DNA of 64,000 nucleotides from an uncultured candidate division Zixibacteria bacterium (GCA_963668625.2 CAXXKA010000006.1:512001-576000); one strand, 5' to 3'. Counted from the first letter of the stretch, positions 43,688-49,497 are shown. Program-made: numbers and translations. Notes: generated from the letters alone by a model not told the origin.

Positions 43688-44257
43688 GTGAGAAAATTAG
43701 CAACATTATCATTGATTCTGGTTTTCATCATTAGTTCATTGACTATGGCTCAGTTCAAAGAGGGACAGAAAGCCCCTGATTTTACTTTACCTGATCTGGA
43801 TGGCAATTATGTCACTTTATCTGAAATAGTCGGCGATGGCCCCGTTTATATCAATTTCTGGGCAACCTGGTGCGGTCCGTGTAAAAAAGAGATTCCACAT
43901 CTGATTGAGCTATACCACGAATATCAGGATCGCGGCTTCAAGGTGCTGGCAATTTCCACGGATAACGCCAGAACCGCTGGTAAGGTAAGAGCTTTCGTAA
44001 AAGATCGCGGCATGGATTTCACTATTTTGCTCGATAGCAGTAAAGAGGTATTCGGTCGTAAATATAAAGGTCGGGGTATCCCATATGGATTCCTGATCGA
44101 TAACGACGGTAATATCGTTTATTCCGCCCGTGGTTTCATGCCTGGCCTGGATAAAATCATAGAAGAAAAAATGATGCCCTATTTGCAGAGTGATTCCGAG
44201 GAAAGTGGTTCGGAAGCTGAGGGAGAAGAGATCGAAGGGGAATCCGAGGAAAAATAG
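43688..44257 (+). CDS. TlpA/ResA-like periplasmic thiol-disulfide oxidoreductase
   Basis: Signal; APDFTL; INFWATWCGPC; GIP..FLID..G; acidic tail. Confidence 0.93.
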   Translation: MRKLATLSLILVFIISSLTMAQFKEGQKAPDFTLPDLDGNYVTLSEIVGDGPVYINFWATWCGPCKKEIPHLIELYHEYQDRGFKVLAISTDNARTAGKVRAFVKDRGMDFTILLDSSKEVFGRKYKGRGIPYGFLIDNDGNIVYSARGFMPGLDKIIEEKMMPYLQSDSEESGSEAEGEEIEGESEEK

Positions 44258-44287: not shown

Positions 44288-45850
44288 ATGAAAAAAACAT
44301 ATCTGTGTCTTCTATTAACGGGGATTGCACTTATCTCTCTGGCATCGGAGGCGTTTGCCTGGGGAGATGACTGGTACGTGTCCGCGGCGAATTACGGCCG
44401 CTATTATCATTTCAAGGAAACAGCCACCGACTCGGCGGCAACGAGATTTCAGTACGATATTTACATGGGGGATTTCTATTCCGGAGGTTGGTACGAGGTC
44501 AAGCATGTCATGAACGAGACCGGCTTTACCTCCACCGAAAATGAGTTAACCAGGCGCTATTTCGGCTGGGAAAACAACGATTTGACAGTGCATGTCGGTC
44601 ATTTCTACGAGGTGTACGACCGGGGGCTGGTTCTGAATACGTTCCGGGATGATGAGGTAAGCGTCGACCTGGTGTTGGACGGTATTAAACTTAACTGGCG
44701 CAAGAAATATTTTGATCTCGACTTTTTATCCGCCGTCCAAAACAGTGACGCTACATTCCGGCCTATTATTCGTGGCGCGCACGGTAAGTTGAAACCTTTA
44801 AATATGTTCCATTTTGGCGGCGCTTATGTTTCCTATATAGGTATAGATAATAATCGCCAGAATATCAGCCAGGTAAATCAGCGATTCATGCTGGATTTCC
44901 TCGATATTTACGCTGAGTATGCCCGTCGCAAATACGATATTATAGATATATTCGATCCCACTATTAAAGAGTCAAAAACAGGGGATGCTCTCTACGTGAA
45001 TTCTACCGCCTATTATTCTTATTTCTCGGCCTTATTCGAGTATAAAAATTATTACGATATGCTCTATCCCTCGGGCGGCAATCTCAATACGCCGCCGGCT
45101 GTTAATCCGCAGGATAGATTGCTTTCTACGGAGGCCGCTAACGTGTTTAATCCCATAAAAGGTGAACGCGGTTATCGCCTCAATCTCGGATTCGCGTTGA
45201 ATGATTACTGGGGCGCCGAATTCGATTATTCGGCGGCTAAAAGCAGATCGCCTGAAACGGTGGAGAGTAGCGAGCTGTTCGCCGAAATCAGGGGTAGCCT
45301 TCTGGATGACAGGATGTCGTTCAAAGCCGGGATCGATTTTTTCGATTTCTCGTTTAAGGATTCTTACGATTCTGTTTATGTCGATACCTTTCCGCCGGTT
45401 TATATCGCCGGTGGGCCGGTCAAATTCGAACGAAACGAGATCAAACCGGAATTCGATATCGAATACCTGTTCGATGATTATCATTCTATCGAACTCGACG
45501 CTTATTTGATAAAATACGATTATAAAGTGCCCTCCATGCCGAATGAACTGCCTGACTCGCTTGAAACTCACAGTATGGCCGACTCATCAGATTTTACCGA
45601 GAAATTCCTGAACCTGACATTTTCACGTATACCGAGTTTCAGGTTAACGATCGGCGGCAGTCTCTCGGATAAAGATCCCTCGCCCGATCCTGATAATATG
45701 GCTTTCATCGAGGTCTCTTATATCTGGGGTAATCATGAGTTGATCGTGTTCCAGGGCGAGCAGCGAGGCGGACTCGTATGTTCTGGTGGTGTTTGTTCTT
45801 TCCACCCGACATTTAAAGGATTAAGAGTAACCTTGCTGAGTCGTCTATAA
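44288..45850 (+). CDS. Outer membrane beta-barrel with C-terminal CxxxxC motif (DUF6029-like)
   Basis: Signal; VGHFYEVYDRGLVL, EYKNY and NTPP motifs; C-terminal QRGGLVCSGGVCSFHPTFKGLRVTL. Confidence 0.7.
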   Translation: MKKTYLCLLLTGIALISLASEAFAWGDDWYVSAANYGRYYHFKETATDSAATRFQYDIYMGDFYSGGWYEVKHVMNETGFTSTENELTRRYFGWENNDLTVHVGHFYEVYDRGLVLNTFRDDEVSVDLVLDGIKLNWRKKYFDLDFLSAVQNSDATFRPIIRGAHGKLKPLNMFHFGGAYVSYIGIDNNRQNISQVNQRFMLDFLDIYAEYARRKYDIIDIFDPTIKESKTGDALYVNSTAYYSYFSALFEYKNYYDMLYPSGGNLNTPPAVNPQDRLLSTEAANVFNPIKGERGYRLNLGFALNDYWGAEFDYSAAKSRSPETVESSELFAEIRGSLLDDRMSFKAGIDFFDFSFKDSYDSVYVDTFPPVYIAGGPVKFERNEIKPEFDIEYLFDDYHSIELDAYLIKYDYKVPSMPNELPDSLETHSMADSSDFTEKFLNLTFSRIPSFRLTIGGSLSDKDPSPDPDNMAFIEVSYIWGNHELIVFQGEQRGGLVCSGGVCSFHPTFKGLRVTLLSRL

Positions 45851-46023: not shown

Positions 46024-46084
46024 AGACTATCTAAGATTAAGAGAGTTAGTAGGTTACAAAAATAGATGAATGGAAGGATTTAAA

Positions 46085-47152
46085 ATGAATAGAGTGAAAG
46101 GGTTAGCGGTAGCTGCCGGATTGTTTTGTCTAGTATTGACCAGTGGAGCAGTAGCCAGTGACAGAATGGTGTTGGTTGAGATGTACACTAACACATCATG
46201 CACGTATTGCCCGCCTGCTGAAACTGCTTTAGATGGTATAGCCGATAATTATCCCGACACTGTAGTTGCGATCAGGTATCATACCTGGTGGCCTGGTGCT
46301 AGTGATCCTTATTACACTTATAACACCTCGGAGAATAGAACCAGGACAAACTATTATGGAGTTGCCCAACAGGGTGTTCCGGCTGTCAGGGTTGATGGTT
46401 TCATAGATGCCAATTATTCGGCACTCTGGAATATCGTATCAAACCGTTATCACATGGAAGCACCGATAGAACTTAACCTTAGCGGTACTTATAATCAAAC
46501 ATCCAATACCGGAACTCTAAACGTAGAGATAGTGGCTACTGATTTAGCATATTTCGAGGAATTATATCTTCGCTGTGCCATAACCGAATCGGATCTGTAC
46601 TATTCAGCTCCTAATGGCGTTACTTGGCATCATCAGACTATGAGGGATATGGTTCCCAACGCAACGGGTACCTCGGTTGAGATCGAATATGGGGAGACAG
46701 TGAACGTATCGTTACCGTTTTCTGCGCCGGCGCCGCTTAATGTGGATAATCTCGAACTGGTTGTTTGGCTTCAGACAGATTTTTTCCAGACCCTTGAGGT
46801 ATATCAAGCCGCACGTATTAAGCCATCCGAACTTGTTAGAGTAAGCGTGGATGATGAACCGGTATCATTGCCTGAGTCATTCACTTTAAGTCAGAATTAT
46901 CCCAATCCGTTCAACGCAACAACCAATATCTCGTACTCTCTAGAAAACCAGACCTCTGTCGATCTGGCAGTCTATGATCTTTCCGGACGCAAGGTCGCTC
47001 AGTTAGTTAATAGCGTACAAGGCGCTGGTGAGCATAGAGTTGTTTGGAATGCTCTGGATAATGATGGCGATGCTGTTGCCACTGGTATCTATTTTTACAG
47101 ACTAAAAACTGATACTGAAAATACTACAAAGAGAATGGTATTATTGAAATAA
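46085..47152 (+). CDS. Omp28-related thioredoxin-fold protein (CTYC) with T9SS/FlgD CTD, paralog 1
   Basis: Signal; RMVLVEMYTNTSCTYCPPA, YHTWWP, GVP, HHQTMRDM; SQNYPNPFN..GIYFYRL..KRMVLLK. Confidence 0.85.
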   Translation: MNRVKGLAVAAGLFCLVLTSGAVASDRMVLVEMYTNTSCTYCPPAETALDGIADNYPDTVVAIRYHTWWPGASDPYYTYNTSENRTRTNYYGVAQQGVPAVRVDGFIDANYSALWNIVSNRYHMEAPIELNLSGTYNQTSNTGTLNVEIVATDLAYFEELYLRCAITESDLYYSAPNGVTWHHQTMRDMVPNATGTSVEIEYGETVNVSLPFSAPAPLNVDNLELVVWLQTDFFQTLEVYQAARIKPSELVRVSVDDEPVSLPESFTLSQNYPNPFNATTNISYSLENQTSVDLAVYDLSGRKVAQLVNSVQGAGEHRVVWNALDNDGDAVATGIYFYRLKTDTENTTKRMVLLK

Positions 47153-47201: not shown

Positions 47202-47216
47202 ATATGAATATGTTCG

Positions 47217-47244
47217 TTGACAACATTGTAATAAATGGTATATT
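47217..47244 (+). promoter_or_regulatory. sigma70-like promoter of Omp28-like paralogs 2 and 3
   Basis: TTGACA-N16-TATATT. Confidence 0.55.
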
Positions 47245-47302
47245 TAGGAAAATAAGGGACTGCCTTAAATTAGATATTGATATAGAGGAAAGGATGTTCA
47301 AG

Positions 47303-48355
47303 ATGAGGATAAAGGTTATTTTTATATTTCTAGCATTATTGTTTATTTCCGGGGCAGCCAATGCCACACAACGCCTGGTATTATGCGAAAAATATACTAA
47401 TACCTCATGTGGCCCATGTTATAACGCCAACCAGACCATGGATCAACTTATCGCCGCTTATCCCGATCATATGGCGGTGATTCGGTATCATGTTGATTGG
47501 CCCTCGGACTTGGATCCTTTCTATCTGTACAATCCGAGCGAAAATGGTATTCGAACGAATTATTACGGCATAGGCTCCGTGCCTCACCTGCAGGTGGGAG
47601 GTATTCATGATGCCGGTTCGCATACTCAGTACTGGAGCGTGATTTCGAATCGCTATACCGTGCCCTCGGCACTGGAGATAGTAATCGATGGTACTTTCAA
47701 TGAATCATCCCGAACCGGTAATCTCAGTGTCACGGCCACGGCTACGGATGCTATTTCACTCGAGGGCTTGTTCCTGAGGGTAGTCCTTACCGAATCTGGT
47801 ATCCCGTTCAATGCGCCTAATGGTATCAATTATCACCATCAGACAATGCGTTATATGTTCCCGTATTCGCTTGGAACGAGAGTGTATTTAACTAATCCCG
47901 GTGATGTTGCGGAAGTGGAGCTTGATATCTGGGCGCCTGAGCCGTTGAATTTGGAAAATTGTGAGCTGGTGGCTTTCGTGCAGTCGGAGTCGAATCGAGA
48001 GGTACTGCAGGCAGCGAAATTACCCCTGATGGGCCTGACTTTAGTAGATATCGAGGATGAGCAGGTCGAGTTGCCAACTGATTTCCGTTTAGAGCAGAAT
48101 TACCCAAACCCGTTTAATGCCGGTACGGTAATCAGCTATCGGTTGTCATCGGATAGCCCCGTTGAGCTTACCATTTATGATATTTTAGGCAAGAAAATCA
48201 TGACTTTAATCGATGAAAATCAGGCTGCAGGCCATTATAGTGTTAACTGGAATGGCTTAGATAGTGATGGTAAATCAGTGGCCAGCGGTGTATACTTATA
48301 CAGGTTGAAATCCGAGGGGAGAAGCCAGAGCAAACGGATGATGCTGGTGAAATAA
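47303..48355 (+). CDS. Omp28-related thioredoxin-fold protein (CGPC) with T9SS/FlgD CTD, paralog 2
   Basis: Signal; RLVLCEKYTNTSCGPCYNA, YHVDWP, SVP, HHQTMR; QNYPNPFN..KRMMLVK. Start is 47294 or 47303. Confidence 0.85.
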   Translation: MRIKVIFIFLALLFISGAANATQRLVLCEKYTNTSCGPCYNANQTMDQLIAAYPDHMAVIRYHVDWPSDLDPFYLYNPSENGIRTNYYGIGSVPHLQVGGIHDAGSHTQYWSVISNRYTVPSALEIVIDGTFNESSRTGNLSVTATATDAISLEGLFLRVVLTESGIPFNAPNGINYHHQTMRYMFPYSLGTRVYLTNPGDVAEVELDIWAPEPLNLENCELVAFVQSESNREVLQAAKLPLMGLTLVDIEDEQVELPTDFRLEQNYPNPFNAGTVISYRLSSDSPVELTIYDILGKKIMTLIDENQAAGHYSVNWNGLDSDGKSVASGVYLYRLKSEGRSQSKRMMLVK

Positions 48356-48380
48356 TAATAGCAAAAGCTTTGGAGGTTTT

Positions 48381-49445
48381 ATGAAACATGGCTTTCGAGT
48401 ATCAATAGTATCATTGGCAATGATACTTGCCTTAAGCTTCTCTGCCGATGCCGCACGGCGGCTGGTTATTTTTGAAAATCAAACATCCACAGGCTGAGGT
48501 GGTTGTCACGGCGCTGATCTGGTCTTAGATCAGCTTTATGATGCAAATTCCAATTTATTCGTGCCAATCACGTATCATAGTGGTGATATATTCTGGCAGT
48601 ACAATCAAGATGACAATACCAACAGAATATACTATTACCCACCTCATGGCGATGGCAGTTACTATACTCCTTATGCCTGGATTGATGGATGTGTACGTGG
48701 TGGTTACACTTACAGTAGCTGGTGGGCGCTAACCAACCCACGGGTGGAGTTGGGGGCGCCCCTGGATATAACGCTCGAGGGGACTTACGATATTGATGCG
48801 AAAACCGGTAATCTTCATATAAGCATTTACGCCGAGGAAGCTATCACGCTTCAGAGCTTGAAACTCAGGGTAGCCCTGACCGAGGATAGCATCTATTATT
48901 CAGCCCCTAATGGTACTATGTATCACAACTACACTTTAAGGGATATGATCCCGAACGCCGCCGGCGAGGCAATCTCGATCAGCCAGGGGCAGACTCTCGA
49001 GTTCGATAAAGCTTTTGCGCTCGGTAATACGCCGGTACCGCATTTCTGCAGACTCGTGGTTTGGGTTCAAACCGATTCCGAAAACCTGGAGATTTTACAG
49101 GGAGCGGCTATCGATATCGAGGAGTTGGATGACGGTACGGGTATCGATGACAAAGTCGAGCTTCCCCGGAAATTCAGTTTAGCTCAGAACTATCCCAATC
49201 CATTTAATGCCGGTACACTCATAGGCTACGATCTTAAAGTAGATAGCCATGTCGAACTGTGCATTTACGATATCCTGGGCAAGAAAATAGCCACCCTGGT
49301 TAATAACGAACAATTCGCCGGGGAGAAGCAGATAACCTGGAACGGATTCGATGATGAAGGTCGGTCTGTCGCCAGCGGTGTTTATTTCTACAAGCTCTCC
49401 GCTGACGGTATTTCGGAAACCAGGCAAATGATGCTGGTGAAATAA
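48381..49445 (+). CDS. Omp28-related thioredoxin-fold selenoprotein (UGGC, Sec at codon 39) with T9SS/FlgD CTD, paralog 3
   Basis: GGAGG RBS + ATG 48381; signal peptide; RRLVIFENQTSTG-TGA-GGCHGAD in frame with ORF 48561..49445. The TGA at 48495 aligns with the first Cys of the paralog CxxC; SECIS-like hairpin follows. Confidence 0.85.
48498..48534 (+). promoter_or_regulatory. Candidate bacterial SECIS element
   Basis: Perfect 8-bp stem GCTGATCT (48513-48520) / AGATCAGC (48527-48534) with loop GGTCTT starting with G, 23 nt after the UGA. Confidence 0.75.
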
Positions 49446-49469
49446 CAATTTAATGATATGGATAATGCG

Positions 49470-49497
49470 AGCGAGTCGGAAACGGCTCGCTTTTTTT
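49470..49497 (+). terminator. Intrinsic terminator
   Basis: AGCGAGTCG-GAAA-CGGCTCGCT followed by a T tract. Confidence 0.8.

Follow-up and report, generated by a model that had tools for sequence, protein, structure and literature searches.

A conserved in-frame UGA and a dual-coding SECIS hairpin point to a type IX-exported, thioredoxin-like selenoprotein in an uncultured Zixibacteria bacterium

Does the TGA triplet near the 5' end of a gene from an uncultured candidate division Zixibacteria bacterium end translation, or does it encode selenocysteine (Sec)? The gene lies within a 64,000-nt stretch of a single contig (GCA_963668625.2 CAXXKA010000006.1:512001-576000), which we call the window; positions are counted from its first letter unless a contig or locus is named. 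From the ATG at 48381, the reading frame is open to 49445 with a sole interruption, the TGA at 48495–48497 (codon 39), and the read-through peptide around UGA-39 is ...RRLVIFENQTSTG-U-GGCHGAD, preceded by a hydrophobic leader that ends in A-D-A. The first-pass annotation of the window had described a GGAGG ribosome-binding site, this ATG, a signal peptide and the in-frame TGA in a 354-aa protein, and all of these elements were recovered at the same positions, the signal peptide by eye (Table 1). It had also remarked that the ORF track begins the gene at 48561, in agreement with our finding that under genetic code table 11 the longest ORF starts only at the GTG at 48561 and yields 294 aa. The evidence below leads us to conclude that the in-frame TGA almost certainly specifies an active-site Sec in a thioredoxin-like protein that is secreted to the cell surface.

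The truncation by standard gene callers that had been anticipated is what public protein collections contain: the Sec forms of the family are present as truncated versions, the window's gene is available only as the 294-aa call, and the entries of the family are 271–306 aa long, with the NCBI name for the relatives being 'T9SS type A sorting domain-containing protein'. The sequence itself was compared with an independent source. Only one sequencing run (X1), probably the source sample, contains the stretch from 48300 to 48700, at a read depth of 4.8, and no RNA run is listed for it; an independent Logan assembly of X1, probably representing the same sample, matches the stretch with no difference.

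Table 1. Coordinates of the selenoprotein gene, its elements and the other genes discussed in the text.
Feature	Position	Strand	Basis
Cassette gene 1, exported TlpA/ResA-like thiol-disulfide oxidoreductase with a WCGPC motif	43688..44257	+	Pfam, NCBIfam; PDB ResA 4nmu, E 2.7e-27
DUF6029 outer-membrane β-barrel	44288..45850	+	Pfam DUF6029; AlphaFold2 model
Cys paralog with CTYC, first of three tandem genes	46070..47152	+	reads ...YTNTS-CTYC; Pfam/NCBIfam
Cys paralog with CGPC, 25 nt upstream of the selenoprotein gene	47204..48355	+	reads ...YTNTS-CGPC; real start probably near 47294
Shine-Dalgarno-like GGAGG, 4 nt 5' of the ATG	48372..48376	+	read directly
Full predicted selenoprotein gene with UGA-39 read as Sec, 354 codons, stop at 49443-49445	48381..49445	+	translation with TGA=U
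Signal peptide, residues 1-24, cleavage likely after A-D-A	48381..48452	+	by eye; lone helix 3-19 in AlphaFold2 model; leaders of homologues
Thioredoxin-like domain, ~residues 26-125	48456..48755	+	AlphaFold2 model; PDB profile matches
UGA, predicted Sec39, position one of U-G-G-C (resolving Cys42, 48504-48506)	48495..48497	+	column in homologues
Predicted SECIS hairpin, 8-9 bp stem, apical GGUCUU; also codes A45-D-L-V-L-D-Q51 of helix α1	48513..48534	+	folding, covariation
Omp28-type β-sandwich (Ig-like), ~residues 126-250	48756..49130	+	Pfam PF11551; structural match 2r2c
T9SS type A C-terminal sorting domain, residues 271-351	49191..49433	+	TIGR04183
Terminator-like hairpin and T-run, 3' of the selenoprotein gene	49469..49492	+	consensus scan only
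HdrA-type genes and PrxU	L116:1742-4000, L117:1483-3966, L120:518-1225	L120 listed as minus	in-frame TGA, GGUC-loop hairpin

The Sec machinery, whose presence the first-pass annotation had proposed as a check, was found in the genome (4.3 Mb in 10 contigs, 95.9% complete). The selD, selA and selB genes are located side by side on contig C1 (353.8, 467.8 and 347.9 bits, respectively) and a tRNA-Sec gene on contig C2 (68 bits with Rfam; SeC(tca) by ARAGORN), each scoring above its curated cut-off. TGA is an ordinary stop codon in this organism, ending 415 of the 1834 open frames of at least 300 codons, and a genome-wide recoding of TGA is thereby ruled out. When the genome was scanned strictly for hairpins with a GGU(C/U) loop downstream of an in-frame TGA, SelD, a PrxU peroxiredoxin and two genes of the HdrA type came up. 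PrxU scores 381.7 bits and one of the HdrA genes 1168.6 bits with the HdrA2 model, both over the cut-offs. The selD gene carries one in-frame TGA of its own (L011, C1:154251-155174, UGA at C1:154281). The apical loops are GGUC in the HdrA and PrxU genes and GGUUC in SelD, 17–32 nt after the UGA; since the loop of our gene (GGUCUU at 23 nt) resembles those of the other selenoprotein genes of the genome, the gene looks like a client of the same SelB. A second SelD copy (L010:328-2532), which lacks a TGA, follows a class-V aminotransferase (NifS-like) domain in a fusion protein. We also noticed a second candidate family of T9SS-exported selenoproteins in this genome (L119:527-1528, that is C1:92026-93027, and C4:261517-262263). 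It combines a signal peptide with a C-D-E-U motif and a T9SS sorting domain (48 bits), and 30 nt past the UGA there is a hairpin whose loop is GGUUC; exactly one TGA was present in 18 of its 18 matches, from 10 of 26 related genomes.

We then turned to the relatives of the gene. With residues 1–255 as the query, 41 related genomes were searched in six frames, and 90 homologous matches were returned from 28 genomes. A single TGA interrupts 57 of these matches, 32 are free of it and one has a TAA; 26 of the 28 genomes bearing the family have at least one copy with TGA. The selA gene is present in 41 of the 41 genomes, so its occurrence does not discriminate between genomes with Sec forms and those with Cys forms only. 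When the 43 N-terminally complete copies from the first 30 loci were translated and aligned, the column of the first Cys of the CxxC motif held U in 30, C in 12 and N in one, and among 37 family genes in 20 operon stretches the same position was U in 29 and C in eight; the two sets overlap and the genomes are akin, which makes the samples dependent. The TGA is accordingly not unique to this assembly. In all 43 aligned copies, a similar hydrophobic, signal-peptide-like leader lies in frame upstream of the UxxC motif, and an N-terminus of signal peptide and UxxC is in frame in the homologues of 20 relatives. The two adjacent paralogs, which had been read as carrying CTYC and CGPC with the TGA at the place of their first redox Cys, do read YTNTS-CTYC and YTNTS-CGPC, and the TGA falls in the same column in the homologues. 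The dipeptide within UxxC varies (GG, GP, SY, PY and GA), and the only invariant chemistry of the alignment is the U/C-x-x-C pair together with a thioredoxin-type proline, P97.

The region immediately 3' of the TGA contains the hairpin that the first-pass annotation had described, with a perfect 8-bp stem and a G-initiated loop beginning 23 nt after UGA-39. In the DNA, it consists of GCTGATCT (48513–48520), the loop GGTCTT (48521–48526) and AGATCAGC (48527–48534); in the RNA, GCUGAUCU and AGAUCAGC flank the loop GGUCUU, and a closing G-U pair extends the stem to 9 bp around GUCU. On folding, the hairpin forms, and the 63 nt from the codon have an energy of −16.9 kcal/mol; the same folding of the two neighboring Cys paralogs gave −6.4 and −9.3 kcal/mol and no comparable hairpin, as had been judged by eye. 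The energy stays within the range of shuffled sequences, however, with z values of −0.90 and −1.35 for the 61–63-nt stretch and 32 and 14 of 200 shuffles folding as well. We compared 19,998 random TGA sites of the genome: a Watson-Crick stem of at least 8 bp occurs in the next 60 nt at 176 (0.9%) of them, and a stem of at least 9 bp at 765 when G-U pairs are allowed. On a single sequence, the hairpin is therefore uncommon but not rare and goes beyond chance only mildly, and because a lone hairpin is this common by chance, the weight of the case comes from the comparison of homologues. An Rfam search over 48350–48700 gave no match at E values up to 10. A consensus scan flagged the hairpin at 48513–48534 as a terminator; this reading was rejected, as the T-run is merely TTTAT and is unconserved in the homologues.

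Conservation of the hairpin is where the proposal might have failed, and the comparison came out in its favor. Across 25 order-level Sec forms, 95.6% of the cells are paired over the nine proposed pairs, compared with 17–36% when the 3' partner is slid, and compensatory double changes occur at four pairs, a number reached by none of 500 shuffles; A-U is replaced by G-C, for example, and U-A by C-G, a replacement that turns a Q of the protein into R. The hairpin columns G27 and G28 are invariant in the Sec forms. Third codon positions of the seven hairpin codons are conserved at 0.95 in the Sec forms versus 0.43 in flanking codons, and in the Cys forms the corresponding values are 0.63 and 0.49. 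The peptide A-D-L-V-L-D-Q is exact in 15 of 25 Sec forms and in none of 12 Cys forms. Stems average 8.4 bp in the 30 Sec forms and 5.4 bp in the 12 Cys forms, with mean energies of −12.0 and −5.0 kcal/mol, respectively, a contrast for which P values overstate the case because the sequences are related. The hairpin is thus conserved with covariation in the Sec forms and decays in the Cys forms. The Sec reading is strongly supported, and the comparison identifies UGA-39 as a conserved, predicted Sec codon followed by a conserved, predicted SECIS hairpin.

Two observations on hairpins elsewhere in the family deserve mention. One Cys form (L076:2501-2563, minus strand), a close sister of a Sec form, keeps an 8-bp stem with the loop AUCC instead of GUCC, and looks like a recent Sec-to-Cys switch with a remnant of the SECIS. 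In two more distant families (L082, L083, L109-L111 and L115), the Sec forms lack the hairpin at +16; theirs lies roughly 31 nt past the UGA and has a CUCGACC/GGUCGAG-type stem and the loop AGUU.

These comparisons bear on two explanations that do without Sec. The TGA could be a nonsense mutation or an assembly error in a dead paralog, whose function the two adjacent Cys paralogs could cover, and the low read depth of 4.8 in the single run X1 would leave room for an error. Against this stand the same bases in the independent assembly, the recurrence of TGA in this column across several genera and families (30 of 43 homologues), the intact frame on both sides of the TGA, and purifying selection at the synonymous sites of the hairpin; we regard such an origin of the TGA as scarcely credible. 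Alternatively, UGA-39 could terminate translation, and the functional product would arise from the GTG at 48561 or another internal start, as in the public annotation. Gene callers do produce the 294-aa protein, and HBP35 of Porphyromonas gingivalis, described below, is reported to give shorter forms of 29 and 27 kDa (PMC2907840), which makes a truncated by-product conceivable, for example under selenium shortage. An internal-start product, however, would begin inside strand β2 without the signal peptide, strand β1, the UxxC center and helix α1, while still carrying a T9SS sorting domain that needs prior export, and the 38 codons 5' of the UGA are conserved in frame in all homologues. As the account of the functional product, an internal start is very improbable. 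Read-through of UGA-39 as Sec is the interpretation that we carry forward.

Sec and Cys forms have replaced each other repeatedly in this family. In a quick maximum-likelihood tree of 42 N-terminal domains, built with the CxxC and hairpin columns excluded and one 130-aa fragment dropped, the two forms are interspersed, requiring at least nine changes, eight of which are forced by well-supported branches. A repeated loss of Sec to Cys appears to be the simpler reading of the tree, and is favored because the hairpin is recognizably the same across clades. In this genome, four of the five family paralogs use Cys, and with the at least eight to nine Sec/Cys switches this indicates that Sec is dispensable for the family. 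In two genomes of the same genus, all three tandem genes are Sec forms, of which this genome retains one, and the CGPC paralog is sister on the tree to two Sec forms from same-genus genomes. The ORF of this paralog is probably about 30 codons too long, since its homologues begin at an MFKM... leader near 47294, and a promoter-like site (47217–47244) lies inside the 5' extension (47204–47300).

The architecture of the protein was analyzed with an AlphaFold2 model of residues 1–255 (36-row alignment, pLDDT 93.5). The model comprises a β-strand (29–35), the UxxC motif, an α-helix (42–56), a β-strand (60–66), P97, a β-strand (98–101) and an α-helix (111–122), followed by a β-sandwich at residues 128–245. 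U39xxC42 is located at the onset of helix 42–56 and P97 precedes strand 98–101; with U/C39, C42 and P97 invariant in the alignment, the domain has the characteristics of a thioredoxin fold, and a PDB profile search with it matches 2axo and thioredoxins. The Pfam Omp28 model (PF11551) scores 53.4 bits (gathering threshold 34.9) over residues 96–246. Of the 'Omp28-like thioredoxin fold' proposed in the first-pass annotation, the thioredoxin fold holds for the N-terminal domain, and the Omp28 part has to be moved, because the Pfam match covers the β-sandwich behind it. The signal peptide, assigned by eye, and the T9SS-type C-terminal domain that had been proposed both stand: TIGR04183 matches at 37.8 bits (cut-off 23), and the genome encodes T9SS machinery (PorU, 681.8 bits; SprA_N, 110.3 bits). 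The Pfam sorting domain PF18962, at 26.5 bits, is just below its threshold of 27. The C-terminal sorting-domain part of the protein has at least 150 matches genome-wide, and T9SS cargo thus appears to be very abundant in this organism.

The best structural match of the model is HBP35 of P. gingivalis (PDB 5y1a; VIA Z 26.0, rmsd 2.4 over 225 residues; Foldseek E 7e-14), which aligns with model residues 24–254 and shares the architecture of thioredoxin, Ig-like and T9SS C-terminal domains at 12–15% identity, with Cys in place of Sec. The entry 5y1a was not among the 18 sequence-profile matches at E values up to 1. Next comes 2axo (Z 19.0), whose function is unknown, followed by the Omp28 domain 2r2c (Z 9.8). 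According to the report on it (PMC2907840), HBP35 is a T9SS cargo with an insulin-reducing thioredoxin activity that is lost when its two motif cysteines are mutated (C48S/C51S); it also binds hemin and supports growth without hemin, and its 29- and 27-kDa forms are cytoplasmic and occur besides the full-length protein.

The neighborhood of the gene is conserved as well. The order of the ResA-like reductase, DUF6029 and one to four thioredoxin genes is kept in 20 of the 20 stretches fetched from relatives, which belong to four GTDB families, with DUF6029 directly 5' of the thioredoxin genes in each of them, and DUF6029 and the thioredoxin family co-occur in the same 28 of 41 genomes. The AlphaFold2 model of DUF6029 (pLDDT 79.8) consists entirely of long β-strands and matches outer-membrane barrels, and most DUF6029 homologues end in ...SRF. 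In a paper on polysaccharide export barrels (PMC9603273), HHpred ties DUF6029 to Wzi-like barrels. An invariant Cys pair, C498/C503 (45779–45796), is located in a short β-hairpin just before the last strand. It is tempting to speculate that the co-inherited periplasmic reductase and the DUF6029 barrel are likely partners of the surface selenoprotein and possibly supply it with electrons. That the cassette is a dedicated relay of reducing power across the outer membrane to a surface selenol enzyme, with C498/C503 as the link, is a doubtful extension of this idea, and no trans-outer-membrane thiol relay of this cassette type is described in the literature searched.

Taken as a whole, the gene very likely encodes a 354-residue selenoprotein in which Sec39 is inserted via the SECIS, and which is exported to the surface by the T9SS and acts as a selenol/thiol-disulfide oxidoreductase. 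By the established bacterial mechanism, SelB with Sec-tRNA(Sec), held by the hairpin 15–37 nt downstream with its apical GGUC, would insert Sec at UGA-39. This insertion would create a U-G-G-C redox center at the start of helix α1 of the thioredoxin fold. Judging from the domains and the machinery of the genome, the signal peptide would direct the protein to the periplasm, and the C-terminal sorting domain would take it through type IX secretion to the surface, where PorU would remove the domain and anchor the protein. At the surface, the fold and the likeness to HBP35 suggest that the protein may work as a selenol/thiol-disulfide oxidoreductase, most likely as a reductase. We infer the surface location, the redox direction and the substrate; the surface-exported selenoprotein that the first-pass annotation had put forward is supported, with the machinery, the conservation of the TGA and the covariation of the hairpin in its favor.

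A true selenoprotein might still have another job, such as binding of heme or metal, detoxification of peroxide or chalcogen, or a periplasmic role. The hemin phenotypes of HBP35 (PMC2907840), the unknown function of 2axo as the second-best structural match and the wide variation of the UxxC dipeptide, unusual for a single fixed redox potential, point in this direction. On the other side, the U/C-x-x-C pair and P97 are the only invariant chemistry, and the partner in the cassette is a ResA/TlpA-type reductase. We consider a different job unlikely, though it deserves to be kept in mind, and retain thiol-disulfide oxidoreduction as the preferred function.

This is, then, in all probability a genuine, mis-annotated selenoprotein gene with a dual-coding SECIS; it is of practical use in annotation and makes a good model of how Sec and Cys evolve. 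Gene callers reduce it, and most of its relatives across an uncultured phylum, to a fragment without a signal peptide or an active site. The gene would place a predicted Sec outside the cell, exported by the type IX system. With Sec and Cys swapped at least eight to nine times, the family offers a clean natural experiment, and because the SECIS hairpin also codes for seven residues of the active-site helix, the constraints on the RNA and on the protein can be separated. Meanwhile, the conserved cassette gives a functional context to the uncharacterized DUF6029 barrel. Our literature searches on selenoproteins with type IX secretion, Omp28 or HBP35 returned no discussion of a T9SS-exported Sec, and the work listed for Zixibacteria and selenoproteins concerns Deltaproteobacteria.

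How does the gene compare with known selenoprotein systems? Bacterial SECIS elements of the SelB-dependent E. coli fdhF type lie inside the ORF, with a spacing of about 16–37 nt as the rule. As in the fdhF type, the hairpin here lies just past the UGA and within the coding frame and has G/U in the apical loop; unlike the fdhF type, it has a stem sequence that is particular to this family and at the same time encodes A-D-L-V-L-D-Q. Among curated families, the NCBIfam model NF045500, 'Omp28-related selenoprotein', has the same domain order and is named as a selenoprotein family. Residues 22–252 align with positions 34–274 of the model, and the tail of the model (about 272–376) matches T9SS sorting domains. 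With 34.9 bits, the protein stays below the cut-off of 200, as does the best match in the genome at 74.4 bits, and a search of 151 genomes from the phylum yielded no match above it. The gene appears from these scores to be a separate, divergent Zixibacteria branch related to NF045500. A UxxC family of similar look had been published earlier: 'hypothetical protein GOS_C', with a Trx-like fold, a conserved UxxC and SECIS-like hairpins, represented by 74 Sec sequences and 312 Cys homologues (Zhang & Gladyshev 2008, PLoS Genet, PMC2398784). A sequence in its supplementary file 2 resembles our protein, by eye only, in its leader, in a basic residue with a hydrophobic strand, in U-x-x-C and in later conserved blocks, while secretion, Omp28, T9SS and gene context are absent from the family description in the available text of the paper. 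With NF045500 in existence and the 2008 family of similar appearance by eye, the gene looks like a selenoprotein of a known kind, and is best described, from sequence comparison, as a divergent member, found in Zixibacteria, of a family that had been predicted before, rather than as a new kind of system.
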